A stretch of DNA of 64,000 bases from a virus (IMGVR_UViG_3300037258_000514:64001-128000); one strand, 5' to 3'; counted from the first letter of the stretch, positions 19,827 through 34,769 are shown. Translations and numbers: made by a program. Notes: a model not told the origin generated them from the sequence alone.

Positions 19827-19842
19827 ATGGCTCCTAAGAAGT

Positions 19843-20690: not shown

Positions 20691-20848
20691 AAAAAAACTT
20701 ACTTTGTGCAGAACTTCGCATGTTTGGTTCTTTGTTTTTTTGAACGAAATCTATTCCCGCAGAAGCCACAAAGTTGTTTCAGCATGTGACCAGTGCCTGA
20801 TGAGCCTTCACGTACTGCTGTTGGTTTTTTCATTTATTCTCCTAAAAT

Positions 20849-20924
20849 TGGTGCACCCGGAAGGACTCGAACCTCCGATAACTGTCTTGTAAGGGCAGCG
20901 TTTTAGCCGCTAAACTACGGGTGC
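20849..20924 (-). tRNA. tRNA-Val(TAC)
   Basis: cloverleaf, loop CT-TAC-AA, CCA. Confidence 0.9.
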
Positions 20925-21001
20925 ATCTAGGTGCTCACCGCACCTAGACTTTGAACTTAAACATCCCCCAAGGCTTTTATACCTTTATGTTTAAGCTAAA
21001 A

Positions 21002-21096
21002 TGGTAGTGGACCGGGGAATCGAACCCGCGCCGTCGCTCTAATCTGGAGCTCTCCGGTGAGTATAAGGCACCGCCGCACATCCAGTGCTGTCCACC
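21002..21096 (-). tRNA. atypical long-variable-arm tRNA with TAT anticodon (Ile-like)
   Basis: GGTGGAC/GTCCACT acceptor, short D arm, loop CT-TAT-AC, long V arm, ACCA. Confidence 0.7.
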
Positions 21097-21097
21097 A

Positions 21098-21457
21098 TTA
21101 ACTTTCAAAACTTTTCAAATTTGCGTAAACTTCTGCGTCATGCAAACCTTCTGTTGTAAAAGGAAATCTTGCAATCGGACTAAAATCTTTTTCCAAGAAG
21201 TGCGGATCAAGTTTAATTCTGTCTTTAATACGCTCTTTCGTAGAACGATAAACTAAAATCTTCCTGCCATCGTAAGGAGTACAGCCTAAATATCTTGCCT
21301 GTACCACACATATACAGGATAAGCTCTTGATCTCTTTAATGTTGATTATAGAAAAGAGTTCAGGATTAGGATTCGGTGGATCAGTTTTGCCTGCACTACT
21401 ACCAAGTAAATTTATTCCCATTTTAGATATTCTCAAAAATTGGTATTCGCAAATCAC
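21098..21457 (-). CDS. hypothetical protein
   Basis: PNPNP.LF...Y.GC..Y.G.KILVY...LDPHF...SPIARF motif pattern. Confidence 0.6.
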   Translation of the reverse strand: MICEYQFLRISKMGINLLGSSAGKTDPPNPNPELFSIINIKEIKSLSCICVVQARYLGCTPYDGRKILVYRSTKERIKDRIKLDPHFLEKDFSPIARFPFTTEGLHDAEVYANLKSFES

Positions 21458-21794
21458 ATTTAGGATTCATCGAGTACTTTGTTCGGTACCAGTAAACGTA
21501 TGAATGCCATTTCGGATTGTAGTAAGCTTCTTTCTCTTCTTTGTTAAGTAACTTCATAAGAAGCTCAACGTTATCTACTATAATCTCGTCAGGTTGATCT
21601 TGCCAATCAGCCCACAATTTTTGTAATCCATCTTCTATCTCTAGAATTAGATCAGGATATTTTTCCACTAAGTGGAGTTCGACTCCACGTAAGTCTAAAC
21701 GATGTCGCGTTGTTCTGCGCGTATTGTAGTAGTTCTCTTGCTCAGGCGTTAGTTTTGCAATTCCGCACACGTGGCACCCCGGTGATCCGCACAT
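21423..21794 (-). CDS. hypothetical protein
   Basis: 123-aa ORF. Confidence 0.5.
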   Translation of the reverse strand: MCGSPGCHVCGIAKLTPEQENYYNTRRTTRHRLDLRGVELHLVEKYPDLILEIEDGLQKLWADWQDQPDEIIVDNVELLMKLLNKEEKEAYYNPKWHSYVYWYRTKYSMNPKCDLRIPIFENI

Positions 21795-21801
21795 AAAGTT
21801 T

Positions 21802-21875
21802 TGGTGGCTCGTGACAGAATCGAACTGTCGTAGGTTGCTTATGAGACAACTGAACTACCACTGTTCTAACGAGCC
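21802..21875 (-). tRNA. tRNA-Met/Ile2(CAT)
   Basis: cloverleaf, loop CT-CAT-AA, CCA. Confidence 0.85.
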
Positions 21876-21884
21876 TCTAAATTT

Positions 21885-21962
21885 TGGCTGTGGGAGAGGG
21901 ATTCGAACCCCCGACCGTCACCTTAACAGGGTGCCGCTCTTACCGGACTGAGCTATCCCACA
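21885..21962 (-). tRNA. tRNA-Asn(GTT)
   Basis: cloverleaf, loop CT-GTT-AA, GCCA. Confidence 0.9.
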
Positions 21963-22579
21963 AAGTTTTTTGCTACTGCGATCCATTGTTGCGGATCGTT
22001 AAACATTTCTTTCCACTTAATACGCAAAACTTTCCAACCTTTGCTAATTAAGTAAGTATCTTTTCTCTGATCTCTTTCTTTAACTTCAATGTCTTCGTGT
22101 TGCTGGCCATCAATTTCAATTGCAAGCATTTTATTCTTCCAGGCGAAGTCAATTTTAAAAACTCCGGTCTGTAAGTTAAAATCATAATATTTATCTGTAA
22201 ATTCGTTTTCTATAACTTTCATGAAAAATTGTTCAGGATAAGATGGTTCGTTATTCCATTGACAAAATCCAATGTTATGTGCACGACCTTCGGCATGAGC
22301 CACTTTCATTTTTTCTGATAGTAGTTGTTTAGTTTCTTTTGTTTGAACTCTTCCTTGCCTGCCGCGTAATTTATTACTGCAACGTGCCGCGCTTAATGCT
22401 ACTCGAGGATCTTGTTTCGTTAATCCTTTATTCCAAGGAATGTTTCCTTTTGCTGATCCTGCTTTAAATGTTATTCCTGCCCCGTGCATTCTCCAGACGT
22501 GTGAAGCAAGTCCTCTTTCAGGTAATTCTTTTTCGCAATGATTGCATATTACTCGTGTTTTTGAAAGCGTATTATACAT
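21953..22579 (-). CDS. DUF559/Vsr-like homing endonuclease with C2H2 and NUMOD3-like segments
   Basis: CNHC...HVWRMH; PWNKGLTK; KIDFAW...AIEIDGQQH...GWKVLRI; stop lies inside tRNA-Asn. Confidence 0.8.
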   Translation of the reverse strand: MYNTLSKTRVICNHCEKELPERGLASHVWRMHGAGITFKAGSAKGNIPWNKGLTKQDPRVALSAARCSNKLRGRQGRVQTKETKQLLSEKMKVAHAEGRAHNIGFCQWNNEPSYPEQFFMKVIENEFTDKYYDFNLQTGVFKIDFAWKNKMLAIEIDGQQHEDIEVKERDQRKDTYLISKGWKVLRIKWKEMFNDPQQWIAVAKNFVG

Positions 22580-22585
22580 AAAAAC

Positions 22586-22698
22586 TTCTGCAACAGTTAT
22601 CCGCCTTTTACTAGCCACTAGTAGAACTATTGTATTGGAAGTCCGCGGTGCTCCCCTCATTCCTACTAGTGATAGCGAGCTATGAATCTGTTGCAGAA
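22586..22698 (-). ncRNA. putative structured spacer RNA
   Basis: terminal stem TTCTGCAACAG/CTGTTGCAGAA, inner CACTAGTAG/CTACTAGTG, AGCACCGCGGA loop. Confidence 0.55.
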
Positions 22699-22703
22699 AG
22701 TTG

Positions 22704-22946
22704 TTATTCGACTAAGCTAAAGTCGACGTAAAAGCGTTTCTTAGCGTGTAATGCATCCACAAAAATCTTAAATGCATCCGGATTTGTAATCATCATTTGT
22801 ATTGAGCCTGAAGGTGTCCATTTCGACCAATCTGTGTTGTCACCTTCTTTATCATTTCCGGCAGTTAGTTTAACGTTGCCTGAACCTTCCGGAGATTCAT
22901 ATAACTCAACGCCTGTTACTCTAAACTTCGCTCTTACTTGTGCCAT
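22704..22946 (-). CDS. conserved phage hypothetical protein
   Basis: VRAKF...WSKWTPSG.I.M.ITNP...FYVDF. Confidence 0.7.
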   Translation of the reverse strand: MAQVRAKFRVTGVELYESPEGSGNVKLTAGNDKEGDNTDWSKWTPSGSIQMMITNPDAFKIFVDALHAKKRFYVDFSLVE

Positions 22947-23013
22947 TTTATTTCTCGAAGCCGTATAGCTTTATCGGCTAAGAATTTTCTACGGTACTAC
23001 TCTCCGTAAGAAC

Positions 23014-23088
23014 TGGTTGCGGGGGTTGGATTTGCACCAACGTCTGCAGGTTATGAGCCTACCGTATGACCTACGCTACCACCCCGCG
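23014..23088 (-). tRNA. initiator-like tRNA-Met(CAT)
   Basis: C1:A72 mismatch, loop CT-CAT-AA, atypical T loop TGCAAAT. Confidence 0.8.
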
Positions 23089-23557
23089 TCAAACTAATCT
23101 TGTTCCCGCGTTTCCATCCAAGTTCGTAAAACGAATTAAGTTCTGTTAGCCGAACTAACATTGTCTTCTTTTCGCTAACGTTGTAAATCCATCTTTTCCC
23201 GAAGTTTGGGTTTTGTTCTCCTAGTCTCCCATGTAACTGACGAGCTTTTTCTAATCCATGTTTTTCAACAGTTGCTTGCCATAAATTTTTTGTGACTGCT
23301 CCACAAGCAATTGCATCTTGCCTGTTCTCTGATGGTGTTCCCCAATACAAATGAAACGGATTATTGCATTTCTCATTGTGACAGGCATGACAAGCTTGTA
23401 TCCTATGACCTTTTGGAACAGTTGTATTAAGTATGTGTGCAAGCAATCCTCTGCATTGCTCGGAATTACATCCACGTTCAACGCAGAACTCATTTAGTTT
23501 GAGATGAGATTGTCGCTCACTTTTTGTAAGCAAAATATAGTCTTCAATCTTAATCAT
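23051..23557 (-). CDS. His-Me-finger (HNH-type) homing endonuclease, MIxIExYIL family
   Basis: ACHACHNEKCNNPFHLYWGTPSEN; stop lies in the tRNA-Met anticodon loop. Confidence 0.8.
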   Translation of the reverse strand: MIKIEDYILLTKSERQSHLKLNEFCVERGCNSEQCRGLLAHILNTTVPKGHRIQACHACHNEKCNNPFHLYWGTPSENRQDAIACGAVTKNLWQATVEKHGLEKARQLHGRLGEQNPNFGKRWIYNVSEKKTMLVRLTELNSFYELGWKRGNKISLTRGGSVGHTVGS

Positions 23558-24057
23558 GCTCCATCCCTGCGTGATACAACTAAACTTTTGTTTTTCTTTG
23601 CTTCGTTTTTCTTAAACTGTTCTCTTATTGCATTTGCAATATGAGGCAGCGCTGAAAGATCACGTCGACATTCTTCCAAAGAATAGCCAGCTTTCGCTGC
23701 TGCTGCGTCTGCTGTAAAACCTTGTATGTAACAAGTAACAAAATGATGCTCTTTCTTGTTCAACTTCTTCTCTTTTATTTTTCGTTGTTTACCTATTGCT
23801 AAGCAATCATCTACAAATTTGTTAAACTCTCCTTCACGAATTCCGTTGATAAGAGCATCGTATTTCTTGTTCGCTTCTTCATTCATCGCAGCTTGACTAT
23901 CTAAGAAAAGTCTCTGAAGATGAGGGGCCAAAGAAAGATGAAGATCTCTAACAGTTATTTTTAAATTTTGTATTTCAGTAAGTACTTGATCGAGCTTTAC
24001 TTTTTTTGGCTTTGCTTTTGTCTTTTTCTTCATATGGTAAGCATTTATATATACCAA
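23554..24057 (-). CDS. hypothetical protein with terminase-small-subunit-like HTH at the C terminus
   Basis: LNKKEHHFVTCY......AAAKAGYS. Confidence 0.45.
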   Translation of the reverse strand: MVYINAYHMKKKTKAKPKKVKLDQVLTEIQNLKITVRDLHLSLAPHLQRLFLDSQAAMNEEANKKYDALINGIREGEFNKFVDDCLAIGKQRKIKEKKLNKKEHHFVTCYIQGFTADAAAAKAGYSLEECRRDLSALPHIANAIREQFKKNEAKKNKSLVVSRRDGA

Positions 24058-24063
24058 TTACTT

Positions 24064-24372
24064 GTGCCACGTATTCTGTTGACAGGGACGTGGCCTAACC
24101 CCGCTACTTAGCGAACTAAGCAGCAGCAGCTTGCGACATCCATGCGCCCTGAGGGATCATGAAAGGAGCAATCTGAGCAGTTTTGTCTGCATTTACAATT
24201 AGCTTCTCGTTACGGTGAGCAGCTATTTCCGGCGTCGCAAACAATCTACCTTACCTCCGTCGAATCTAATTCATCCCCGTAATTAGCGTCGAGAATGTTT
24301 AGTTGGTGGAGATGGCGGGGTACTGCCCCCCGCGTCCGTCGGTATAGCACATTGTTTGATATACGGCGCACT
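24064..24372 (-). ncRNA. ssrA: two-piece (circularly permuted) tmRNA
   Basis: acceptor piece ...GACGCGGGGGGCAGTACCCCGCCATCTCCACCA (ends 24304) precedes coding piece GGGGATGAATTAGATTCGAC (starts 24278); G3:U70; tag frame 24190-24116 ADKTAQIAPFMIPQGAWMSQAAAA*. Confidence 0.9.
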
Positions 24373-24375
24373 GTC

Positions 24376-24981
24376 TTAAAACTTTAATTTCCTACCTAAT
24401 TGCCAACCCTGTGTAAGATATAGTGCGGTTTCTTCTTTTGCAACAGCTTTTGACTTTTTCTCTTTTGTATTAAAGATCCAGTTTGTTCCAAATCTGTTAT
24501 TTTTGCTTCCCTGTTTTAACATACTCATTAATTCACACGAGCTTTGTTTATGTTTACTCCCCGTCCATTTTCTCTGACCGCGCAAGCTTGCACTCAATGC
24601 AAGTTGTCTGCGAACGTCTGTATTACTATCTAACCAGATACGTAATTTTACGTAAGCTCTTTTCCCTCCAAGAAGTCTATTAAATTTGTTTTGTTTCTCT
24701 ACCCACTCCCATCCGCCCATACCTCCGTTGTTAAGATTATAACATAACGGATTTTCTTTTTCTGCTTCAACAAGTCGAGCCTCGAGCGCAAACATATCTT
24801 CTGCATTGTCGAAATCTGCAAGCACTTCTTTACTAAAATTTACTATGCCATGCTTCTTTATTGCGTACCAGAAAAGTACTCCTGATCCTAAGTAACTATC
24901 ATCAGGCTTTTCTGTTTTATGCGCTCCGATGTAAAACTTGTTATTCACTTTACATGTCGTTTTATAAACTGTATAGTGCAT
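24376..24981 (-). CDS. GIY-YIG (Seg-like) homing endonuclease
   Basis: TVYKTT...FYIGAH...YLGSG...YNL..GG; directly upstream of tmRNA. Confidence 0.85.
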   Translation of the reverse strand: MHYTVYKTTCKVNNKFYIGAHKTEKPDDSYLGSGVLFWYAIKKHGIVNFSKEVLADFDNAEDMFALEARLVEAEKENPLCYNLNNGGMGGWEWVEKQNKFNRLLGGKRAYVKLRIWLDSNTDVRRQLALSASLRGQRKWTGSKHKQSSCELMSMLKQGSKNNRFGTNWIFNTKEKKSKAVAKEETALYLTQGWQLGRKLKF

Positions 24982-25001
24982 AGCAACAAACTTGTTTTAA
25001 A

Positions 25002-25121
25002 TACAGGTAGTCCCACGAACAAGTACTTCGCAAGATTTTAATCCGTTAGTACTCTCGCCTTACTACCTGCATTAGGGCGACCAATAAACCAGCCGCCTCC
25101 ACCATCCAGTCGGACCCTAAT
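25002..25121 (-). ncRNA. putative structured RNA (two long hairpins)
   Basis: ATTAGGG..CGAC/GTCG..CCCTAAT and GCAGGTAGT/ACTACCTGT stems. Confidence 0.45.
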
Positions 25122-25126
25122 ATACG

Positions 25127-25141
25127 CTAGGCCACTCCCCG
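25127..25141 (-). pseudogene. 5' fragment of a tRNA-Pro-like gene
   Basis: CGGGGAG-TGGCCTAG resembles a tRNA-Pro 5' end; no matching 3' half; Pro is the only amino acid missing from the array. Confidence 0.35.
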
Positions 25142-25543
25142 AAACTTTAATCTCCTGTTACTTCCTCTTCTTTTTTTTCGGGCTCTTTAAACTCTGGAGT
25201 AAACTGTGTTTCGTTGTGTTTTAGGTCTGCAATAATTGCAGGCGTTGCATCTGAGTGTTTTACGGGAAGCATTTTACCACACCGTATGCAAGGCGATCCG
25301 GGTTGTTGATCCGGGGCATCATGAGAGCAAGTATCAAGATCAGCCATAGTAATTCTCCTAGTTAAAACTACCACCAGTCCAGTTTTTAATGTAAAAAAGA
25401 ATTGACCTAAAAACTTTTGAAAGAAGAAAGTAATAAAGTAAATACATTACTACGCCATCGTAGAAATAAGCTGAGAGCAGTGCTGCTGTTATATCTGATG
25501 TTGTTCGTTCTAAGAACGTTAATTTTTCCATAGTAGTAAAAAA

Positions 25544-25619
25544 TGGTGGACACTCCCGGAATCGAACCGGATTTTCTAGCTCTTCAGGCAAGCACATTGA
25601 CCTTCAATGTTAAGTGTCC
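25544..25619 (-). tRNA. tRNA-Phe(GAA)
   Basis: cloverleaf, loop CT-GAA-GA, CCA. Confidence 0.85.
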
Positions 25620-25864
25620 ATTTAACTCGCTATAACTTCTTTGACTACATGTCCTATGTGAGCAATACCTTTCGGTACACCACATTCGTTGCACATCCCG
25701 TATTTCTCGGGAAGCGGCTTGTTTGGATTGCAACAGTCGTGTCCACAGCGTTTACAAAATGGACGTTGAAGTCCGTTGTATGTTCGACACTTACAACATC
25801 CCCATCCCGGTAATAGATCTCTTACGTCGAGTAGTAACTGACATTGTTCTGTGTTCATAAAATT

Positions 25865-25943
25865 TGGTGCCCTAGGTGGGATTCGAACCCACAAAATCTT
25901 CTGGGTCTAAGCCAGACGCCTTTTCCGATTTGACCACTAGGGC
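25865..25943 (-). tRNA. tRNA-Leu(TAG), short variable region
   Basis: cloverleaf, loop CT-TAG-AC, CCA. Confidence 0.85.
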
Positions 25944-26399
25944 CTCTTTACTATAAACTCCTTGTTTATGTAGGAGTTTAATAGAATCTGATATTTTTAG
26001 ACACTGTTCTTCAGGTTTTGGCTTTCCTTTATTACCACAACCATTCGTGTTTCCTCTGTGAGCTTGTCTTATTCGTGAAGCTTCTTCGCCATACTTTGCA
26101 ACTGTGTACTGCCAAACTGTTTTGTTATTTCGTCCGCTAGATATAGCATCCATTCTGTTTTCTCTAGGCGTACCCCAGTACACGTGAAATGGATTGCTAC
26201 ATTCTCCATTATGGCAAGCGTGACAAAGTTGAATTTTGTTTCCTCTTGGAATTGATGTATCCAAAATATAAGCTAGTAAGCCTTTTGAATAAACAGAAAC
26301 CCATCCCTCACCGCCACGATAAACACAAGGTTCATTAAGTTTTAAATGACGTTGTCTCTCGGCTTGGGATAGTAGAATATATTCTTCTATTCTAATCAT
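25872..26399 (-). CDS. His-Me-finger homing endonuclease, MIxIExYIL family
   Basis: LCHACHNGECSNPFHVYWGTPREN; frame reads through most of tRNA-Leu(TAG). Confidence 0.8.
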   Translation of the reverse strand: MIRIEEYILLSQAERQRHLKLNEPCVYRGGEGWVSVYSKGLLAYILDTSIPRGNKIQLCHACHNGECSNPFHVYWGTPRENRMDAISSGRNNKTVWQYTVAKYGEEASRIRQAHRGNTNGCGNKGKPKPEEQCLKISDSIKLLHKQGVYSKEALVVKSEKASGLDPEDFVGSNPT

Positions 26400-26405
26400 G
26401 CAGGC

Positions 26406-26434
26406 ATTATAAATTAATTTAACGTGTCTACCAA
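26406..26434 (-). promoter_or_regulatory. sigma70-like promoter giving a leaderless endonuclease mRNA
   Basis: TTGGTA-17 nt-TATAAT, ATG 6 nt downstream. Confidence 0.55.
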
Positions 26435-26442
26435 GCATAAAT

Positions 26443-26520
26443 TGGTGCGCAGAGGGAGATTTGAACTCCCAAACAACTGATTCTCAACCAGTTAGGTATG
26501 CCTGTTCCCTTCATCTGCGC
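26443..26520 (-). tRNA. tRNA-Leu(GAG), short variable region
   Basis: cloverleaf, loop TT-GAG-AA, CCA. Confidence 0.85.
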
Positions 26521-26526
26521 AAATTT

Positions 26527-26617
26527 GTTCGGTAAGGTGATTCATGCGCAACAAACCCTCTCTCAAAAGAAGAAAAGCGTGTGCAGGATCTCCCTGTACA
26601 ACACAGCCTTACCGAAT
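26527..26617 (-). ncRNA. putative structured spacer RNA
   Basis: terminal stem TTCGGTAAGG/CCTTACCGAA filling the Tyr-Leu spacer; inner hairpins. Confidence 0.5.
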
Positions 26618-26618
26618 A

Positions 26619-26705
26619 TGGTGCATTGGGTTGGACTCGAACCAACGTAGCCACTATGGGCAACTGGGTTACAGCCAGTCTGTTTTGCCGCTCACACACC
26701 AATGC
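26619..26705 (-). tRNA. tRNA-Tyr(GTA)
   Basis: cloverleaf with V arm, loop CT-GTA-AC, CCA. Confidence 0.9.
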
Positions 26706-26709
26706 GAAA

Positions 26710-26925
26710 CTACTTAAAAAGTTCTTCGTAAGCTTGTATCATCGTAGTATACTTATTCAGAGGATGTTCATCTGTCCACTCAACTTCACAAACTTCCGTT
26801 TTCATTACTTTCGGCATAATACAACGGTTTGGGTAGTGAGTGTTTTCTATTACGCTTTCTATTTCTTCTGGCGAAAGCTTATCATGATTAACAATGAGTA
26901 TTTCTACTTTGTATACTGTAGTCAT
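26710..26925 (-). CDS. hypothetical protein
   Basis: 71-aa ORF, ..VEWTDEHPLN motif. Confidence 0.55.
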   Translation of the reverse strand: MTTVYKVEILIVNHDKLSPEEIESVIENTHYPNRCIMPKVMKTEVCEVEWTDEHPLNKYTTMIQAYEELFK

Positions 26926-26929
26926 AATC

Positions 26930-27021
26930 TGGAAGAGGGTAACGGAATTGAACCGTCTGTCTGCAATAGCAGCGCAGGTCCTGGGTTCGAGCCAAGTTGC
27001 CCACCATGAGCACTACCCTCT
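26930..27021 (-). tRNA. atypical tRNA-Ser(CGA)
   Basis: AGAGGGT/ACCCTCT acceptor, compact D arm, loop CT-CGA-AC, long V arm, TCCA. Confidence 0.75.
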
Positions 27022-27109
27022 GGCGGTGAGAGCGAGAGTCGAACTCGCGCGTCCCTTGCGGGTACTCCTGCTTTCCAGACAGGTGCTTTTACCATTCAGC
27101 CATCTCACC
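27021..27109 (-). tRNA. tRNA-Ser(GGA)
   Basis: cloverleaf with V arm, loop CT-GGA-AA, GCCA. Confidence 0.9.
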
Positions 27110-27110
27110 T

Positions 27111-27659
27111 CTAAACTTGAGTATTTCTATCGCGTTTGTATTTTCCTTGCGCGTGTAATTCTTTAACAGCTGATGAGATCAACGCGTTCGTGCAACTAGC
27201 CCTTCCGCGCTGCCAATCAGGATAGTTGTTAATTTCTTCTTTTAAAATAAGTTTTTCACTTATTCCATTTGTAATCCAAATCTTTCCAAAAATAACTTGA
27301 CTTGCTTTTTGAATGTTTATCAAAGCATTTTGTCTTGCTAACGTTCGTGCTTTTTCTTCTCCATGTTTCGCTATTGATTTTTCCCAAATATTATGCTGGC
27401 TCCCGGCTTGTTTTGCGTCGTAAAAATTTTCGGTAGGCGTGCCCCAGTATAAGTGAAAAGGATTACTACATTTGTCATTATTACAAGCATGGCAAAGATA
27501 AATTGTATGTTTACTGGGAACTGTTGTATCAAGAATGTATGCGAGTAATCCTTTACACTCCGTTGAGTTACATCCTCTTTCTTCACACAGACTAGAAAGT
27601 TCAAGATGTGCCTGACGATCTACTTTTGTCTTTAAGATATACTCTTCTATTTTAATCAT
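27111..27659 (-). CDS. His-Me-finger homing endonuclease, MIxIExYIL family
   Basis: LCHACNNDKCSNPFHLYWGTPTEN; WITNG...WQRGR C-terminal module; ends 1 nt before tRNA-Ser(GGA). Confidence 0.8.
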   Translation of the reverse strand: MIKIEEYILKTKVDRQAHLELSSLCEERGCNSTECKGLLAYILDTTVPSKHTIYLCHACNNDKCSNPFHLYWGTPTENFYDAKQAGSQHNIWEKSIAKHGEEKARTLARQNALINIQKASQVIFGKIWITNGISEKLILKEEINNYPDWQRGRASCTNALISSAVKELHAQGKYKRDRNTQV

Positions 27660-27666
27660 AAGAAAT

Positions 27667-27761
27667 TGGAGGAGGGCCGGAGAGTTGAACTCCGTTATGC
27701 CAGGTGCTCTGACATTCGCCAGTTTTCAAAACTGGTGGCTGGACCGTGCGCCACGCCCTCC
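27667..27761 (-). tRNA. atypical tRNA-Ser(TGA)
   Basis: GGAGGGC/GCCCTCC, loop TT-TGA-AA, long V arm, unusual D arm, TCCA. Confidence 0.75.
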
Positions 27762-27938
27762 TAATATCGTGTACTAAACGTTAACTTTTTAATTTGTGCG
27801 CGTCTCATAATGTAGTTCTTTAAGAATGCAGCCTGACGAATTTTTCCTTCTTCAACGGCACGAATAGAAAAGTTGATCATTAGCTCAAAGAAACGTTCTT
27901 GCTGCTTGCGTAGTTCATTCAAACTAGGCATAAGATTA

Positions 27939-28029
27939 TGGCGGAGGGTACAGGATTTGAACCTGTGGAACGTTTATAGTTCACTTCTTTAGCAAAGAAG
28001 CGCGATAAGCCGGACTCTGCCAACCCTCC
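27939..28029 (-). tRNA. tRNA-Ser(GCT)
   Basis: cloverleaf with V arm, loop TT-GCT-AA, GCCA. Confidence 0.9.
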
Positions 28030-28196
28030 GAAAACTATAACGCACAGGCTGGACTGTGCCCGCCTGTGCGCTTCTTCCTTTTAGTTTACATTTTGCATTT
28101 CCTCTGTTTATCTTTAACATTTCTAAACAGTGTCAATAGTTTCATCTATATCATATATGATAAGATTTTTGTTGTTATACTCCCTGCATCTGCAAA

Positions 28197-28307
28197 TGCA
28201 ATGGTACTGGAATATAACTCTCATCCTAGGTGCTTGAGTCGGAATACTGAATAAAAACAGGTCCTATCTTATCGTTCGCCGTCCTAGGTGCTCCGGCGCG
28301 TACTGCA
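28197..28307 (-). ncRNA. putative structured RNA with two AGCACCTAGGA hairpins
   Basis: hairpins at 28220-28238 and 28277-28298 enclosed by TGCAGTAC/GTAC..TGCA. Confidence 0.5.
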
Positions 28308-28398
28308 ATCTTGATTGTATTTTTAAGTTTTATCTGTTATTCTGTAGATGTTTTTTCAAGTTTTCATTATTTTGGTCCCCCTACCTCATTTATACCAA

Positions 28399-28672
28399 TT
28401 ACCTGTTTACCTTCCAAATGTTTCTAGCTACTTCTGCTTTGTGCCAAGCTTTAAATGTCGGTGTTTCGATTAGCTTTAAGAAAGCCTCTTTGCGATTAAA
28501 GATGTTGGTCACGACCATCGCGGTGCTCGGCTCGTGCTCCAGAAGCTAGATGAATCAATCTAACTCCATTTTGTTTAGCGTTCCTGCGTTGTCCGCCCTT
28601 ACCACCTGTGCAGAACGTTTGAATTTCAAAATCGTTCTTTGTTACACTAAACAACAACACTTTATTTTCCAT
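28399..28672 (-). CDS. GGQ peptidyl-tRNA hydrolase / release-factor-like protein (ArfB/RF-1 domain) split by a +1 frameshift
   Basis: AAGGAG RBS; MENKVLLFSVTKNDFEIQTFCTGGKGGQRRNAKQNGVRLIHLASGARAEHRDGRDQHL, then CTT-TAA; the +1 frame continues NRKEAFLKL... Confidence 0.75.
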
Positions 28673-28689
28673 GTTGTTCTCCTTGAAAC

Positions 28690-28767
28690 TGGTAGGCGCG
28701 GAGGGATTCGAACCCCCAATTGATGCTGCTTTTGAGGCAACCGCTTTGCCAAGTTAGCTACGTGCGG
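28690..28767 (-). tRNA. tRNA-Leu(CAA) with mismatched acceptor stem (possible pseudo-tRNA)
   Basis: loop CT-CAA-AA; T arm and ACCA intact; 5' CCGCACG vs 3' CGCGCCT gives three mismatches. Confidence 0.7.
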
Positions 28768-29345
28768 ACAAAAAGTTTAGTAGTTCTTCCTTTTTCCCAT
28801 CCTTCTGATATGAAAAGAAGTATTTTGTTTTGTTTAATTTTAATCTCTTTTCCTTCTTTTCGTATCCAGCAAGTTCCAAACTGCGAGTTCCTCTCTGCAA
28901 TTTTCCTTGCATCAGTTAATGCTTCTTTAGCACGTACTTTGTTTTGCTCTTCTTTGTTATTTAATCTTTGTTGATTAATACTAGAAATGTTTTTTCTACC
29001 ACTAGAAGCTTGTATTTCCTTTGCTTTTTCTAAACCGTGTTTTTCGACCATCTTTTGCCATAAAGATTTATAATTACTACTGCAAATGTAATCAGCAGTA
29101 TTTTCTTTTCTTGTTCCCCAATACAAATGAAAAGGATTACTACACTTTCCATTGTTACATGCATGACATGCTTCTACGTTAATCTTATACGGAAGAGAAG
29201 TGTTTAGTATATAAGATAACGTTCCTCGCATTGCATATGAAACTAATGCAGAATTCCCTCCACGTTCTACGCATTGTTCATCTAATCTTAAATGCTTTTT
29301 CCGTTGTTCTAACGGAAGCAAGATATAGTCCTCAATTCGAATCAT
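28758..29345 (-). CDS. His-Me-finger homing endonuclease, MIxIExYIL family
   Basis: ACHACNNGKCSNPFHLYWGTRKEN; NSQFGTCWI...GWEKGR; stop lies inside tRNA-Leu(CAA). Confidence 0.8.
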   Translation of the reverse strand: MIRIEDYILLPLEQRKKHLRLDEQCVERGGNSALVSYAMRGTLSYILNTSLPYKINVEACHACNNGKCSNPFHLYWGTRKENTADYICSSNYKSLWQKMVEKHGLEKAKEIQASSGRKNISSINQQRLNNKEEQNKVRAKEALTDARKIAERNSQFGTCWIRKEGKEIKIKQNKILLFISEGWEKGRTTKLFVRT

Positions 29346-29352
29346 ATGGCAA

Positions 29353-29382
29353 ATTATAATTTGTAGTTGATTCAAAAATCAA
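29353..29382 (-). promoter_or_regulatory. sigma70-like promoter, leaderless endonuclease mRNA
   Basis: TTGATT-18 nt-TATAAT, ATG 7 nt downstream. Confidence 0.5.
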
Positions 29383-29393
29383 GCAATGAAAAT

Positions 29394-29479
29394 TGGTAGG
29401 CCCTATCGGAGTTGAACCGATACTCCCGAAGGAAACGAGGCTTAAACTCGTTGCGTCTGCCGGATTCCGCCAAAGGCCC
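29394..29479 (-). tRNA. tRNA-Leu(TAA)
   Basis: cloverleaf with V arm, loop TT-TAA-GC, CCA. Confidence 0.9.
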
Positions 29480-29489
29480 GTAAAAGAAT

Positions 29490-29677
29490 TCAGAGAAGAA
29501 GGCTGTCATTAGTGACAGTAAAGAAGATTATCATCAATCTGTTTCTCTACTTAACCTAAGCGCGAAGCGCATCTATCACCTTGATCGGCCTCTCCACGAT
29601 CCTTCGGACTCAGCAATAGAGAACTTGCTACACCTAAATGCAATCCGCGGTGCTTTGCTAGTGTACATCTTCTCTGA
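29490..29677 (-). ncRNA. putative ~190-nt multibranch RNA
   Basis: terminal stem TCAGAGAAGA/TCTTCTCTGA; several inner hairpins including an AGCACCGCGGA loop. Confidence 0.55.
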
Positions 29678-29688
29678 TACTTAAAAAT

Positions 29689-29763
29689 TGGTGGAGGGTA
29701 GGAGAGTCGAACTCCTGATACTTGGTTGCAGGCCAAGTGTGTTCCCGCTAGCACTAACCCCCC
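29689..29763 (-). tRNA. tRNA-Ala(TGC)
   Basis: G3:U70, TGC anticodon, CCA. Confidence 0.9.
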
Positions 29764-29765
29764 AG

Positions 29766-29843
29766 ATACCGCTCGCGTCCGAAACGTTTTGCCTAGGAGA
29801 GTTCCAAACAACAGGCGGTATTCATCCACGGAGCGACCGTGAA
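29766..29843 (-). ncRNA. putative structured spacer RNA
   Basis: ATACCGC/GCGGTAT and TGTTTGGAAC/GTTTCGGACG stems, CCTAGG in the loop. Confidence 0.4.
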
Positions 29844-29848
29844 ACTTA

Positions 29849-30610
29849 CTAATTAATTTTATGGGGCGGCAGATGGGAGTCAGACCCACTAAAAGATGCT
29901 CCACAGGCATCTGCCGCATCGTTTGGCTTCTGCCGCCGTAGCTTGATTTCTCTTCTTTCTAATAATCCGTTAAGAGATCCAAAGTTTGGTGTTAAAGAAT
30001 GACAACTCGGACAAAGTATTTTTACATTACTTCGTCTATTATTTGTTCTATCACCATCTACATGGTGAAACTCTGTTGGGATATTTCCCGTAGTAGGATG
30101 AATTCGCATCCAGCCACATTCTTCACAACTATTTCCGCGAAGTTCTATTAAAGCTCTCTGAGCGAAGTATTCAGTTAGATTATTTTCTCCTGCAAACCAT
30201 CTTTCCTTATCTAACTGCCATTTATGCGCTATCCTACATTTTCCGCTGCAATACTCATTTAAGCCTGTTTTACCACAGAACGTACAAAGCCTTCTTGGAA
30301 TTTTTATTCTTCCGATGTTATTAACTATCCCGGCGCAAGTTTTACTACAATATAATAATCCGTTTGGGCCAACAAAGTTAAAACATTCTGCGCGTTGGCA
30401 CTTTACTCTTTGTTTATTCTTTGTTCTAAGTAAAGCATTTTCTTTGTTAACTTGAACCGCTTTCTCTCGCCCTTTGTTCCAGCGTTCTTTTGCTTCTAAC
30501 GAAAGAACTTCGTGATAGGGTTTGCCTCCGACTTGTATACAGTAAGTTTTGTGCCTATTTAATCCACGAATGTCTTTGCATTCCTTACCACATATACAAT
30601 GAACAATCAT
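29849..30610 (-). CDS. HNH homing endonuclease with zinc-ribbon repeats
   Basis: CEECG...EFHHVDGDRTNNRRSNVKILCPSCHS; YCS..C repeats; frame spans the whole tRNA-His. Confidence 0.85.
   Translation of the reverse strand: MIVHCICGKECKDIRGLNRHKTYCIQVGGKPYHEVLSLEAKERWNKGREKAVQVNKENALLRTKNKQRVKCQRAECFNFVGPNGLLYCSKTCAGIVNNIGRIKIPRRLCTFCGKTGLNEYCSGKCRIAHKWQLDKERWFAGENNLTEYFAQRALIELRGNSCEECGWMRIHPTTGNIPTEFHHVDGDRTNNRRSNVKILCPSCHSLTPNFGSLNGLLERREIKLRRQKPNDAADACGASFSGSDSHLPPHKIN
29862..29937 (-). tRNA. tRNA-His(GTG), atypical D and T loops
   Basis: G-1:C73, loop CT-GTG-GA, T loop TCTGACT, CCA. Confidence 0.8.
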
Positions 30611-30621
30611 ACACTGTTATA

Positions 30622-30653
30622 CCAAGCGCCTAAACCATTCGGCCAACGTCACC
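30622..30653 (-). pseudogene. 5' half of a canonical tRNA-His-like gene, truncated at the anticodon loop
   Basis: G-GTGACGT-TG-GCCGAATGGTTTAGGC-G-CTTGG, then sequence switches to TATAAC and the HNH start. Confidence 0.65.
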
Positions 30654-30867
30654 ATAAAACTTAAACTAATCTTCTCCGCGAATTTTTACGAGAGTCCTTT
30701 TTCTTAATTCAGGTAATGAATCTATCTTCTGAGCAAGGGCAAGAAGTTGGGATTCAATTCTACATGCTTCCCTATAAACTTCTTTCTCTTCAGGATTGTC
30801 TTGATTTGCTGCAAAAACTATCTTTGCAACTTCACGCGATATTGCCTCTGCTAAATTAATCATAACT

Positions 30868-30943
30868 TGGAGCCACCGGTGGGACTCGAACCCACGATTG
30901 ACAGTTTACAAAACTGTTGCTGTCGCCACTGAGCCACGGTGAC
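30868..30943 (-). tRNA. tRNA-Thr(TGT)
   Basis: cloverleaf, loop TT-TGT-AA. Confidence 0.9.
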
Positions 30944-30950
30944 TTAAAAT

Positions 30951-31024
30951 TGGAGCCGCCATCGGGAATCGAACCCGAGTAGATTGCTTACCAAGCAATT
31001 GAACTGCCACTGTTCTATAGCGAC
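30951..31024 (-). tRNA. tRNA-Thr(GGT)
   Basis: cloverleaf, loop TT-GGT-AA. Confidence 0.9.
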
Positions 31025-31064
31025 TTACTTACCACATTACCTTCTCAGCCGTCCTTTAGGAAAA

Positions 31065-31138
31065 TGGAGCCGGCAACAGGAATCGAACCTGTGTAGGTAG
31101 TTTACGAAACTACTGAACTGCCACTGTTCTATACCGAC
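31065..31138 (-). tRNA. tRNA-Thr(CGT)
   Basis: cloverleaf, loop TT-CGT-AA. Confidence 0.9.
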
Positions 31139-31342
31139 GTTTATGTATTACTAGGTCTTACTATCCTGGCGTTGATTCTATCCCTACTAAATCTTTCCAG
31201 GATATCCCAAAATACAGCATCAGGAACTTTCCTGTATTCTGATGTAACCATACCAAGGAAGAAGACCATTTCCGCTTCAGTCCACTCAACCAAACTAGCT
31301 GTTAGTATATGGCAGTCGTAAGTTGTTCTTGGCATAAACTTA

Positions 31343-31533
31343 ATCGCGTCCTACTACTGTCATCGCTCGGCTACGTAGTAAGTAAAGAGGACAAAGCGAT
31401 AAAAGACCCTCACCGCGAAATCTTTACAAGGTTTCTACTCCGTTACAGGTAGCCTACCTCCACGACAGTTGCTATGAGCAAGGTTGAGTTCTCTGTAACT
31501 TAGGCTCAACGGGCGGCTCGGATTTGAACCGAG
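31343..31533 (-). ncRNA. structured non-coding stretch beginning with an orphan T arm
   Basis: CTCGG-TTCAAAT-CCGAG-CCGCCCG at 31533-31510, followed by several hairpins. Confidence 0.4.
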
Positions 31534-31543
31534 AAGTGTAATT

Positions 31544-31620
31544 TGGAGCACGGAACCGGAATCGAACCGGTGTATTGGCAGCTTTGCAGGCTGTCGCCTT
31601 ACCGTCTTGGCTATCCGTGC
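31544..31620 (-). tRNA. tRNA-Cys(GCA)
   Basis: cloverleaf, loop CT-GCA-AA, TCCA. Confidence 0.9.
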
Positions 31621-31726
31621 AAATTGTGCGGCAGAAGTAAACTAAATTACTTCTTCAACACTTTTACCAGTAGTTAATCCGACTGCGGGCGCTTAATAAT
31701 AACCCAATCATTGAGCCGCAAACTTC

Positions 31727-31778
31727 CGGGGTCTATCCTACTGCTGTCCTAGGTTCTCAGCGATTCGGTAAGACCCCG
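31727..31778 (-). ncRNA. small structured RNA with AGAACCTAGGA loop
   Basis: CGGGGTCT/AGACCCCG terminal stem, GCTG/CAGC inner stem. Confidence 0.5.
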
Positions 31779-31795
31779 TTTTTGTGTAATATCTA

Positions 31796-31895
31796 TTGTC
31801 GGGAACAAGCGCTAACAGTTAGCGGTATCGAAACCGCAATTGGCTTACGAGGCCAATTTTTATCCAAGAAGTAGCTGTTAACTACGCCACGACAA
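31796..31895 (-). ncRNA. Yrl-like Y RNA copy 1 (inside the tRNA array)
   Basis: TTGTC-GTGGCG...CTACTTC...CGCTTGTTCCC-GACAA scaffold. Confidence 0.75.
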
Positions 31896-31901
31896 AGAAA
31901 A

Positions 31902-31976
31902 TGGAGCGGGTAAAGGAACTCGAATCCTTGTGTCTTGGGTGGAAACCAAGCATACTAGCCGCTGTATGATACCCGC
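31902..31976 (-). tRNA. tRNA-Gly(TCC)
   Basis: cloverleaf, loop TT-TCC-AC, TCCA. Confidence 0.9.
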
Positions 31977-32033
31977 TTAAAATTTTATTTTCCTTCCCAT
32001 CAACCATCCTATTAACCAACCCCGCCTTAAAAC

Positions 32034-32255
32034 TTATCGCAAGAAGCTTGTAGGACTCATTGCTGCATACTTTAGCAAGAATGAAAGCAATCCTACCCAA
32101 AACATGTGCAAGCCAATTACATTGCATTTCATGTTAAGATCTGATGGTGGAGGTGTTGTTGGTCTGGCTGTGATTAAAAACATTACCAAACCAAGTAAAC
32201 ACACTAAAAGTGAAAGATAAATTTGCATTGTTGATCTCCTTTTATATTCGTCCAA
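32034..32255 (-). CDS. small membrane protein
   Basis: two hydrophobic helices; likely start MQIYL after AAGGAG. Confidence 0.55.
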   Translation of the reverse strand: MDEYKRRSTMQIYLSLLVCLLGLVMFLITARPTTPPPSDLNMKCNVIGLHMFWVGLLSFLLKYAAMSPTSFLR

Positions 32256-32394
32256 GCAAGAATAAGATCAGAACAATAATAAAAATTGTTCCTAATAGTC
32301 CTGATGGAGCGTAACCCCAGTTTTGACTGTGAGGCCATGATGGGAAAGCGCCAACGAGCAGTAAGATTAAAACGATTAGCAAGATTAAGCCCAT
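32242..32394 (-). CDS. DUF3309-family small membrane protein
   Basis: MGLILLIVLILLLVGAFPSWPHSQNWGYAPSGLLG...LLGRI (50 aa, below the ORF-track cutoff). Confidence 0.85.
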   Translation of the reverse strand: MGLILLIVLILLLVGAFPSWPHSQNWGYAPSGLLGTIFIIVLILFLLGRI

Positions 32395-32507
32395 AGTTGT
32401 CACCTCGCTTGATCGTAATATAAACCTAAGCCAGAAATCTGTTCAGTTTTATACACTTCGTACTCTTTGATGCTGTTTGGGAGAAAAACGTTTGATACAA
32501 AATTAAA

Positions 32508-32582
32508 TGGCAGGGGATCCGAGACTCGAACTCGGGTAAACGGTTTTGGAGACCGACGTAATGGCCGCTATACGAATCCCCT
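32508..32582 (-). tRNA. tRNA-Trp(CCA)
   Basis: cloverleaf, loop CT-CCA-AA, GCCA. Confidence 0.9.
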
Positions 32583-32587
32583 AAATT

Positions 32588-32719
32588 TATTCTGAGAGGC
32601 GCCAAAGCCTTGTCCGTTGTAGAATGCTCGTAACGACTAGGGGTTGCGCAGTCCCGTTCCGATAGTTTATACTGACACATTCTTGGTCAACCACTCGCCA
32701 CCTACCACCTCTCAGAATA
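32588..32719 (-). ncRNA. putative rod-like structured RNA
   Basis: TATTCTGAGAGG/CCTCTCAGAATA terminal stem; AGAATG/CATTCT inner stem; fills the Asp-Trp spacer. Confidence 0.55.
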
Positions 32720-32720
32720 T

Positions 32721-32797
32721 TGGCGGGCCGTACGGGATTCGAACCCGTGAATGTACGGTAGACAGCCGTATAGCTTAGACCGCTTGCCTAACGACCC
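32721..32797 (-). tRNA. tRNA-Asp(GTC)
   Basis: cloverleaf, loop CT-GTC-TA, GCCA. Confidence 0.85.
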
Positions 32798-32826
32798 CAA
32801 TATTACTCTATTCAGTTGTCAAAGAA

Positions 32827-33486
32827 TTACAACACCGCCGCCTGAACGGCTTGATGAGAATGCGTCTCTTTCTCATCGTTGAACTTTCGGCACTTACTAC
32901 ACCAAATTAGTTTATACCCAAATTTATAAAGACGATTTCCTACTGCAACGGCACTAACGCCCAACTTTTCTCCTACATATGTGTAGGAAGAATTCTTAAC
33001 CATTGTTACAAGCTCGTTAATCTCAGGCCATTCAATCTTCGTTCTTAACCGTAAACGAGCATGAATCTTATTATAAACGCCTTCAGTATGAAGCCTTTTA
33101 GTACGTAACGAAGCCTCTTGACGCGCTTTAACACTAGTAATTCTACACTTTCTCAACTGCATTGCTTTTTCTTCGCCATATTTAGCTATTGTATATAACC
33201 AAATATTTTTCTTTCCATTTGCTATAGCATCTGCAGTATTTTCTGCTGCAGTACCCCAATACAGATGATAAGGATTACTGCACTTCTCATTGTGACAGGC
33301 ATGACAGCAATGAATTTTTACTTCAAAAGGGATTGTAGTATCAACTATATATGCTAGTAGACCTCTACATTCACCTGAACTGCCTTCCTTTGGATTTCCT
33401 CCTCTTTCTACGCAAGGTGAGTCAAGTTTTAAATGAGATTGCCTTTCTTTCTTTGGACGTAGAATATATTCTTCTATATTAATCAT
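32827..33486 (-). CDS. His-Me-finger homing endonuclease, MIxIExYIL family, HTH-like C terminus
   Basis: CCHACHNEKCSNPYHLYWGTAAEN; KIEWP...SY..VG.KLGVS..AV. Confidence 0.8.
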   Translation of the reverse strand: MINIEEYILRPKKERQSHLKLDSPCVERGGNPKEGSSGECRGLLAYIVDTTIPFEVKIHCCHACHNEKCSNPYHLYWGTAAENTADAIANGKKNIWLYTIAKYGEEKAMQLRKCRITSVKARQEASLRTKRLHTEGVYNKIHARLRLRTKIEWPEINELVTMVKNSSYTYVGEKLGVSAVAVGNRLYKFGYKLIWCSKCRKFNDEKETHSHQAVQAAVL

Positions 33487-33520
33487 AAATACTTCAAGCC
33501 CCTGAGGGCGTCACAAACTT

Positions 33521-33597
33521 TGGCTGGCCACCCAGGATTCGAACCTGGAATCTTCGCGTTCAGAGCGCGCTGCGTTCGCCGGTTGCGCCAGTGGCCA
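33521..33597 (-). tRNA. tRNA-Gln(CTG)
   Basis: cloverleaf, loop CT-CTG-AA, GCCA. Confidence 0.9.
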
Positions 33598-33811
33598 ATT
33601 TACTAAACAAAATCTACTACGTTGTTATTTATACCGCCCTGCGGCGGTGCTGGATTCGTCTGTTCAACATTTGTATTCACAGGATTATCAACTCCCGGTA
33701 CAGGAAGTCCGTAAGGATTAATGTACGAAGTTCCTGTGTTTTGGTAGTACCATCCGAAGTTATTAAATCCCGGTGATGACATTAACGTCTCCTAAATGGC
33801 AGTTCTAATTT

Positions 33812-33887
33812 TGGTAGCCCGAGCAGGACTCGAACCTGCGCTATTCTGCTCCAAAGGCAGACGTCTTGGCCGCTAAACGATCGGGCT
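33812..33887 (-). tRNA. tRNA-Gln(TTG)
   Basis: cloverleaf, loop CT-TTG-GA, ACCA. Confidence 0.85.
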
Positions 33888-34505
33888 ATTAACTTTCTCT
33901 AACTTCTTTCCGGCATACATTCGTTGAATTTTTCCCAACTTCCAACCCTGTATTGTTGCTAGTGCTATAAGATTCTTTTCGATTCTAATATTCTTGTCTT
34001 CTTTGTTCATCCAAACTGTATCCGTAGCTTGGTTTCTACTTCCAACGCAAAGCTTACGTCCATTTGAAATCTTTGCTTTTAGTTCAGATGAAACTATGAA
34101 ACTAGGATGAAAACCTTCACGTCCTTCTTTCCAACCAAGAGTAACAAAAAGTTCTTTGTCATAAAGACAAATTAATCGTGTTAAGCCGTTGTAAGACATC
34201 CAAACTTTATCGGCTGTATTGCGTTTATCTCCGAAATTATTTGTGTATCCGTTTTCTACAGCATCAACACGATTATCTGTCGGTGTTCCCCAGTATAGAT
34301 GAACTTTGTTACTACATTTTTCATTGTGACACGCGTGACATAAGTAAATTTTATATCCCTTTGGGATAGAAGTGTTTAAGTAGTCAGCTAACATGCCTTT
34401 AAACTCAACTGAAAATCCCCCGCGTTCAATGCAGGGATCGTGCAATTTTAAATGAGAGCGTCTTTGCTCTCTTGACAACAAAATGTACTCTTCTATTTTT
34501 ATCAT
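33873..34505 (-). CDS. His-Me-finger homing endonuclease, MIxIExYIL family
   Basis: LCHACHNEKCSNKVHLYWGTPTDN; two W...GWK.G modules; stop lies inside tRNA-Gln(TTG). Confidence 0.8.
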   Translation of the reverse strand: MIKIEEYILLSREQRRSHLKLHDPCIERGGFSVEFKGMLADYLNTSIPKGYKIYLCHACHNEKCSNKVHLYWGTPTDNRVDAVENGYTNNFGDKRNTADKVWMSYNGLTRLICLYDKELFVTLGWKEGREGFHPSFIVSSELKAKISNGRKLCVGSRNQATDTVWMNKEDKNIRIEKNLIALATIQGWKLGKIQRMYAGKKLEKVNSPIV

Positions 34506-34694
34506 ACTTCCAATGCTATAGCTTGTCCGCAGCGCATACATAAAACAAAACTTGAATCTACATCAAATCCAGCATTTTGTCTTGCCACACGCGCCTCATT
34601 CCTAAGAATGATATGATCATCACCGCTTCTTGTGCAAACTCGCTCTGTTGTTATCTCTGCTTTGTGTCCAAGTACATTAATTGTCGGCATAAAC

Positions 34695-34769
34695 TGGTGG
34701 GGCTAACGGGAATCGAACCCGTATTTAAGCTGTGAAAGAGCTTTTACCTGACCGTTAGTAGATAGCCCC
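34695..34769 (-). tRNA. tRNA-Glu(TTC)
   Basis: cloverleaf, loop CT-TTC-AC, CCA. Confidence 0.9.

Follow-up and report, generated by a model that had tools for sequence, protein, structure and literature searches.

A Putative HNH Homing Cassette in a Phage tRNA Array, with a Broken tRNA-His Gene at Its Start and a Divergent tRNA-His Within Its Reading Frame

Introduction

Group I introns equipped with homing endonucleases are found in the anticodon loops of tRNA genes, e.g., in cyanobacterial and plastid tRNA-Leu and tRNA-fMet. Other endonuclease genes stand free among the tRNA genes of phages. SegB of phage T4 cuts the tRNA genes of phages without segB, drives the preferential inheritance of its own tRNA region, and recognizes the T-loop motif GGTTCRANTCC (PMC2330249). 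The end of the segB reading frame is the processing site of the next tRNA, which was proposed to limit expression (PMC2330249). The HNH endonucleases F-TflI/II/IV of phage T5 are free-standing homing endonucleases in phage tRNA clusters as well (Akulenko 2004, as cited in PMC2330249).

A further arrangement was described for fungal mitochondria. In the mORFs of Allomyces (atp6) and Glomus (atp6, atp9, cox2, and nad3), an endonuclease ORF brings along a divergent copy of the gene part that it displaces, and the native part is left alongside as an unexpressed remnant (PMC3630166).

Here we analyze a locus within a window of 64,000 nucleotides, which covers positions 64001-128000 of the viral record IMGVR_UViG_3300037258_000514. 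In this locus, the gene of an HNH endonuclease is preceded by the 5' half of a tRNA-His gene, referred to as the stub, and contains in its last codons a complete but non-canonical tRNA-His(GUG), referred to as His'. As in the case of SegB, the nuclease gene is located between tRNA genes of a T4-type phage. SegB, however, is a GIY-YIG enzyme of a different nuclease fold, its reading frame meets a tRNA processing site whereas the ORF in the window spans a whole tRNA, and neither a broken target half nor a dedicated recoded replacement tRNA is described for it (PMC2330249), while both have a counterpart in the window. The logic of cutting, replacing, and leaving a stub would be common to our locus and the mORFs. 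The latter, in contrast, belong to protein-coding genes of organelles, encode LAGLIDADG or GIY-YIG enzymes, and replace only the 3' end in frame, whereas the window combines an HNH enzyme with a phage tRNA gene, an entire new gene, and a 5' half as the remnant. With the group I introns of tRNA genes, the locus shares the insertion point in the anticodon loop and the association with a mobile endonuclease. There, function is restored by splicing; in the window, neither an intron core nor a 3' exon is present, and function would be restored by a second gene.

The HNH gene is thus situated outside any intron, between a tRNA-His stub and a tRNA-His gene, a placement as in free-standing homing endonucleases. 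Particular to the present case is the putative rescue tRNA, which deviates from the consensus, is invisible to standard tRNA finders, and lies wholly inside the nuclease ORF. A full-text search of the literature retrieved no paper joining 'homing endonuclease' with 'truncated tRNA'.

Results and Discussion

Genome Context and tRNA Array

The virus record has a length of 175,952 bp and a G+C content of 40.6%, and is estimated to be 86% complete. Among its genes is a homologue of rIIA, which shares 38-40% identity with rIIA of T4-type Erwinia and Proteus phages. On the nucleotide level, a megablast search with 20 kb revealed no close relative among deposited phages. The locus is part of a large tRNA array (Table 1). 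Two more tRNAs are located elsewhere in the genome, such that the tRNAs other than His' amount to 34. If His' is left out, this set is near-complete apart from His, and genome-wide searches with ARAGORN and Rfam yielded no other tRNA-His in the 175,952-bp genome. CCA is encoded by His' and, with a single exception, by the array tRNAs examined. A TTYRA T loop is present in 31 of the 33 array tRNAs examined, His' being one of the two without it. In addition, the array contains many other structured spacer RNAs.

Table 1. Features of the locus and its surroundings; positions are counted from the first nucleotide of the window.
Feature	Position	Strand	Remarks
tRNA array	16994-34769	-	30 tRNAs by ARAGORN, 2 more by Rfam only
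tRNA-Ala(UGC)	29689-29763	-	right-hand neighbor of the cassette; same in the window, L001, and L002
Spacer between His' and tRNA-Ala	29764-29861	-	98 nt; two stable hairpins, z = -2.4
Trailer after CCA	29849-29861	-	conserved in the window, L001, and L002; HNH stop codon TAG at 29851-29849
HNH endonuclease ORF	29849-30610	-	253 aa; ATG 11 nt after the stub
His', complete non-canonical tRNA-His(GUG)	29862-29937	-	wholly within the last 29 codons of the HNH ORF
Junction and leader, stub to ATG	30611-30621	-	UAUAACAGUGU; no Shine-Dalgarno sequence
Stub, dead 5' half of a canonical tRNA-His gene	30622-30653	-	32 nt; read directly

Further elements of the array deserve mention in their own right. 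The second array tRNA without TTYRA is a tRNA-Met(CAU) at 23014-23088 (minus strand) with the T loop UGCAAAU; ARAGORN calls it in relaxed mode only, and Rfam assigns 37 bits. A tRNA-Leu(CAA) at 28693-28767 (minus strand), scored with 39 bits by Rfam and missed by ARAGORN, is mismatched in its acceptor stem and does not encode CCA. Its first 10 nt are overlapped by the 3' end of a His-Me-finger endonuclease ORF (28758-29375). Between tRNA-Thr and tRNA-Cys, a full-length match to the Rfam CyVA-1 RNA motif was identified at 31343-31419 on the minus strand (53 bits, cut-off 41.4). Outside the window, a tRNA with a CUA anticodon is located on the plus strand (G000:C1:41272-41347), which ARAGORN designates 'Pyl' and which reaches 54.6 bits with the Rfam tRNA model. 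This tRNA may be an amber suppressor, in which case TAG could sometimes be read through in the phage.

Three Loci with the Same Trio

The trio of stub, HNH gene, and His' was found in two metagenomic relatives in ENA, termed L001 (HNH with 66% amino acid identity) and L002 (57%). Including the window, the trio has thus three known members, two of which reside on 1.6-kb contigs. All three continue on the right with tRNA-Ala(UGC), while the left neighbors differ, namely a 65-aa ORF in the window, another ORF in L001, and a tRNA in L002. Neither L001 nor L002 has the 98-nt spacer of the window; His' and tRNA-Ala are 10-20 nt apart there. No close HNH relatives were detected in the JGI metagenomes, and searches of the protein collections yielded only P0002, P0003, and P0005. 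Searches for His' itself beyond these loci gave 64 matches of a D-arm pattern in IMG/VR, all of them due to chance, and no match of a longer pattern in the JGI metagenomes.

The HNH Gene

Residues 1-224 of the HNH protein constitute the enzyme, and residues 225-253 are a translation of the tRNA and its trailer, i.e., the last 29 codons are made up of the 76-nt cloverleaf and a trailer of 13 nt. The enzyme is composed of an N-terminal CxC..H..C module, Cys-rich repeats, and an HNH core (C162/C165, H183, N195, C200/C203, H204) with the local motif HHVDGD..NN..N..LCPSCH. Among 24 aligned homologues, H183 and H204 are invariant and N195 nearly so; of the CxxC pairs, C162, C165, and C200 are invariant and C203 is nearly invariant. 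The protein matches PHROG 1271 'HNH endonuclease' over residues 6-246 (E 1.2e-17), and scores 17 bits against Pfam HNH_3, below the cut-off of 24.8 bits. A homologue of solved structure was not found by sequence search. Amino acid identity among the three trio proteins is retained at 57-66% with near-saturated silent sites, which points to purifying selection on the enzyme. Judged from its sequence, the gene is intact and its predicted catalytic residues are conserved.

Matches within the wider family stop at query residues 209-252, mostly at 214-230, and the tail is common only to P0002 and P0003. The initial annotation had asked whether homologous HNH proteins lack the embedded tRNA. It is present in L001 and L002, and the more distant homologues are without the tail. 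The reading frame runs through the whole tRNA because His' has A8-A9-G10 and not the U8-A9-G10 TAG where relatives stop. The location of the tRNA inside the ORF therefore looks like passive read-through rather than design.

The Stub of a tRNA-His Gene

The stub comprises G-1, the 5' strand of the acceptor stem, the D arm, G26, and the 5' strand of the anticodon stem. It can be followed through the start GGTG, U8, G9, a GCC/GGC D stem with the loop AAUGG, G26, and CUUGG; U32 at 30621 may be part of it, too. On its left, 12 nt separate the stub from the stop codon of the 65-aa ORF on the same strand.

Position A14 and the D stem are in register only with an 8-nt 5' acceptor strand (G-1 plus 7), and the geometry is thus that of tRNA-His. 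A pattern derived from the stub occurs at 59 places in IMG/VR, two of which are inside tRNA genes, in both cases tRNA-His(GTG). The tRNA-His of locus L089 is identical to the window stub in the first 15 nt, has the anticodon-stem start in common with it, and agrees at about 28 of 33 positions overall. The stub has the same type of D arm as the tRNA-His genes of L089, L075, and L076. The stub also resembles class II-like D arms of other isotypes (Cys, Ser, Pro), but these isotypes are rejected in view of the 8-nt acceptor geometry and by the pattern matches, which inside tRNA genes concern tRNA-His only. The assignment to His, on which the initial annotation depended, hence stands.

The tRNA-His genes in L089 (186-270, minus strand), L075, and L076 combine a class II-like D arm with a long variable arm (84-87 nt), which is unusual for tRNA-His.

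In L001 and L002, the stub also lies directly upstream of the HNH gene and starts with GGTG, as in the window. It runs via the 5' strand of the anticodon stem to U32-U33 and is followed by cassette sequence. Since these stubs reach U33, the break is located at position 33/34, at the anticodon. The window stub ends at 31/32; alternatively, it may have lost 8 nt. With the G-1 geometry, the match to L089, and the extent of the stubs in L001 and L002, the claim of a His 5' half that stops at the anticodon is borne out. Between the window and L002, the D stem shows a compensatory change (GCC/GGC versus GUG/CAC), which suggests that each stub descends from a once-functional gene. The D stem of the L001 stub is broken. 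In total, the stubs are identical at 13-15 of 20 nt among the relatives, compared to about 50% at silent sites, and are thus modestly better conserved.

The 3' half of the gene was already noted as absent, and indeed nothing complementary to the acceptor strand of the stub in a T-arm context was found in the whole 175,952-bp genome. A TATAAY-like hexamer is located 5 nt ahead of the ATG in the window, L001, and L002; a consensus scan of stub and leader identified no sigma-70-type promoter.

The Embedded tRNA-His

His' is built of G-1:C73, a 7-bp acceptor stem, a 3-bp D stem with a 9-nt D loop lacking GG, a 5-bp anticodon stem with the loop CUGUGGA, a 5-nt variable loop, a 5-bp T stem with the loop UCUGACU, and an encoded CCA. 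Its minimum-free-energy fold is a perfect cloverleaf (z = -2.7 versus shuffles), in which His' pairs with itself and not with the stub. Default ARAGORN does not call it, and the Rfam tRNA model RF00005 gives no match at E<=10 locally or E<=1 genome-wide. Default detectors miss His' because it has neither G18G19 nor the T-Psi-C loop motif. Only the relaxed and mitochondrial modes of ARAGORN call it, and relaxed calls taken alone are no evidence, with 5-18 extra calls in 25 kb, many of them false.

What settles the case for His' is the comparison of the three loci. In the alignment of the window, L001, and L002, 63 of 63 cells are paired, and 10 of the 21 base pairs are changed on both sides, with such changes in all four helices. 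None of 500 shuffles was as good, and sliding the partners destroys the signal. A cloverleaf arising by chance can thus be ruled out. Fixed in all three loci are G-1:C73, the anticodon loop CUGUGRA (U33 and a purine at position 37), and CCA, and the variable loop is invariant or nearly so. Four-fold degenerate sites are 71-100% identical in the overlap of tRNA and ORF, compared to 45-52% in the HNH body, and third-codon sites are likewise far more conserved in the overlap. Consequently, the constraint on the overlap acts on the nucleotide sequence and not on the protein. The initial annotation had proposed a complete, highly divergent tRNA-His with G-1:C73 in the last HNH codons, and fold and covariation uphold this. 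Taken at the level of sequence comparison, the His' cloverleaf is a real, selected RNA with a complete tRNA-His identity set.

The divergence concerns the universal tertiary motifs (U8, G18G19, T54-Psi55-C56), which His' does not have. Position 8 is A, the D loop AAACGAUGC is without G18G19, and of the T-loop motif only U54 and A58 are kept in UCUGACU or, in L002, UUUAAUU. A bacterial-type tRNA without G18G19 and Psi55C56 may function poorly. The T stem of His', in turn, resembles the T stems of tRNA-His in L076 and L077. This likeness to ordinary phage tRNA-His marks His' as a derived tRNA-His and not a look-alike.

The HNH Family at Other tRNA Genes

The HNH family has 7,977 members (representatives) at E<1e-3. 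Of 93 sampled IMG/VR family loci, 85 are housed in tRNA arrays. In 35 of the 93, the family ORF ends inside the next tRNA (16) or within 30 nt of it (19). The 16 former ORFs stop 7-39 nt into the tRNA, typically at the TAG of U8-A9-G10 or in the D loop. Bacterial members adjoin single tRNA genes, most often tRNA-Thr(UGU).

A search for partial copies of the adjacent tRNA revealed a group of loci in Pyrinomonadaceae. In L303 (1406-2014), L272, and L274, a 5' stub of tRNA-Ala, which stops at the anticodon arm or just ahead of it, precedes the HNH gene, and a complete tRNA-Ala(CGC) comes next. L264, also from Pyrinomonadaceae, shows the mirror form with a 3' stub after the HNH gene, and the anticodon of this remnant is UGC. 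The same layout arose independently at tRNA-Ala in Pyrinomonadaceae. These loci resemble the window in their enzyme, which is homologous (33-38% identity, HNH core), and in the order of their elements: a tRNA stub whose break lies at the anticodon arm or just ahead of it comes first, then the HNH gene, and last a complete tRNA with the isotype of the stub. They differ in three respects. Their new tRNA is canonical and matches the stub at 93-100% over the part common to both, whereas the new tRNA in the window is radically divergent. The ORF stops ahead of the new tRNA, which in the window lies inside the ORF. Finally, a sigma-70-like promoter lies ahead of the stub in Pyrinomonadaceae, such that the cassette is apparently driven from the promoter of the resident tRNA; in the window, the scan found no promoter.

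Among 173 loci surveyed, the only other overlap with a whole tRNA was found in an uncultured bacterium (L296:1561-2295), where the frame of an HNH homologue spans an entire tRNA-Thr(UGU) and stops right after it. In the phage loci L072, L073, and L069, tRNA 5' fragments abut the HNH start, their isotype being not assignable to the downstream tRNA. Blind surveys for stubs used a structural regular expression and BLAST of HNH-upstream regions against tRNA 5' halves; neither showed an enrichment relative to controls. We conclude that stubs are sporadic scars and not an obligatory part of the family.

In L069 (2840-2875; the contig is also that of L221), the ATG of the HNH homologue lies in the D loop of the tRNA 5' fragment, which consists of acceptor and D arm. 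No intact tRNA was found within 3 kb of it.

Origin of the Locus

On balance, and with some reserve, we favor the reading that a free-standing HNH homing-endonuclease cassette overwrote a tRNA-His gene in the array of a T4-like phage, which would explain the 5' remnant, the HNH gene, and the replacement His'. The layout looks like a natural cut-and-rescue gene drive, and the destroy-and-replace element proposed by the initial annotation is supported in part, namely with regard to its anatomy. Cleavage, homing, immunity of the new allele, charging of His', and the effect on transcript processing are steps that we infer. In a mixed infection, the enzyme would cut the canonical tRNA-His genes of cassette-free phages in or near the anticodon arm. 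Recombinational repair would copy the HNH gene together with His' into the break, homology being provided by the surviving 5' half on one side and by the DNA from His' through tRNA-Ala on the other. His' retains the features required by HisRS and for decoding (G-1:C73, the anticodon loop with GUG, and CCA). In nearly all of its stems and in the two universal loop motifs, it deviates from a canonical tRNA-His gene, and it would therefore restore function without presenting a target to the nuclease. As its anticodon loop is the same as in any tRNA-His, immunity would have to come from the stems together with the D and T loops. Extreme divergence such as that of His', in which the T-loop motif recognized by T4 SegB (PMC2330249) is lost as well, would be expected of an immune allele. 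Excision of His' from the array transcript would cut the HNH mRNA before its stop codon, removing the last 29 codons and the stop, and would result in low nuclease output.

Homing is the best-supported reading in that it fits the differing left neighbors, the conservation of the stub, the compensatory change in its D stem, and the recurrence at tRNA-Ala. A cassette-free allele was not found in IMG/VR, the JGI metagenomes, or the protein collections, and relatives with an intact tRNA-His and no HNH gene, proposed by the initial annotation as a check, did not come up in the first two. No presence/absence polymorphism, the hallmark of homing, emerged from these searches. Furthermore, the right neighbor is constant in all three loci, which leaves room for simple vertical descent of an old arrangement.

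This is the starting point of an alternative in which the locus is an old scar. Two tandem tRNA-His genes, one canonical and one odd, would have preceded the HNH gene, whose arrival in the canonical one removed the 3' half of the latter; vertical inheritance of the trio would have followed, and His' would be a resident tRNA unrelated to immunity or homing. Tandem tRNA-His pairs are known in phage arrays (L075), and tRNA-Ala(UGC) is the right neighbor in all three carriers. Neither an HNH-free nor a His'-only allele was found in IMG/VR and the JGI metagenomes, and the differing left flanks could be accounted for by the shuffling of array neighbors that takes place anyway. Nevertheless, we regard such a history as unlikely. 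The layout is found independently at tRNA-Ala in chromosomes of Pyrinomonadaceae, for which one would not expect tandem duplicates. In the array, just one tRNA besides His' is without the universal T-loop motif, and the loss of this motif from His' fits an escape from a nuclease directed at tRNA genes. The compensatory D-stem change between stubs, in turn, would follow from their origin in distinct functional tRNA-His genes.

We consider it quite improbable that the cloverleaf is a tRNA-like element and not a decoding tRNA, i.e., an RNase P/Z signal which ends the HNH message, or a decoy for tRNA-directed host nucleases. The exact His identity set is kept through heavy turnover of the stems (G-1:C73, GUG in a 7-nt loop with U33 and a purine at 37, CCA), U54 and A58 of the T loop are retained, and the otherwise near-complete tRNA set of the phage would be without His. 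These observations are to be set against the non-canonical D and T loops, the missing match to any standard tRNA model, the location inside an ORF, and the abundance of other structured spacer RNAs in the array. Finally, a tRNA-His split by an intron, with the stub as 5' exon, the HNH gene in the intron, and splicing to a 3' exon, would agree with the break in the anticodon loop, where tRNA introns are classically located, and with the frequent presence of homing endonucleases in group I introns, yet can be dismissed because no group I/II intron model of Rfam matched in 28000-32000 even at E<=10, no complement to the acceptor or anticodon stem of the stub occurs in a tRNA context downstream or genome-wide, the distance of about 10 nt from the ORF stop to tRNA-Ala in L002 is too short for an intron core, and His' pairs with itself instead of the stub.

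The homing reading can be extended, tentatively, to a full cut-and-rescue drive. In this version, the rescue tRNA would have been pushed off the universal consensus, losing U8 and the elbow contacts G18G19/Psi55C56, because a SegB-like nuclease reads universal tRNA-gene motifs, and would still be charged and used in the bacterial host. Maturation of the tRNA would destroy the nuclease message, making the nuclease dose inverse to tRNA output, and the non-stop mRNAs would perhaps be handled by a GGQ rescue factor of the phage. We deem this chain possible but, taken as a whole, doubtful.

If the homing reading is true, a homing endonuclease needs no intron to take over a tRNA gene and can do so by means of a spare, nuclease-proof tRNA, and part of the turnover and of the odd tRNAs in phage tRNA arrays would be explained. 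His' would represent a naturally evolved tRNA-His without the universal contacts of D and T loop and with its identity elements kept, and hence a test case for what consensus bacterial translation needs. As standard tRNA finders miss His', the tRNA repertoires of cassette-bearing phages are under-counted.

A 58-aa ORF with a GGQ motif is located at 28496-28672 on the minus strand of the window; it matches the Pfam RF-1 domain of peptidyl-tRNA hydrolase type with E 3e-8 and 33.9 bits (cut-off 35). An ArfB/ICT1-like rescue factor encoded by the phage would suit an array whose ORFs end inside tRNAs, where processing should yield non-stop mRNAs.
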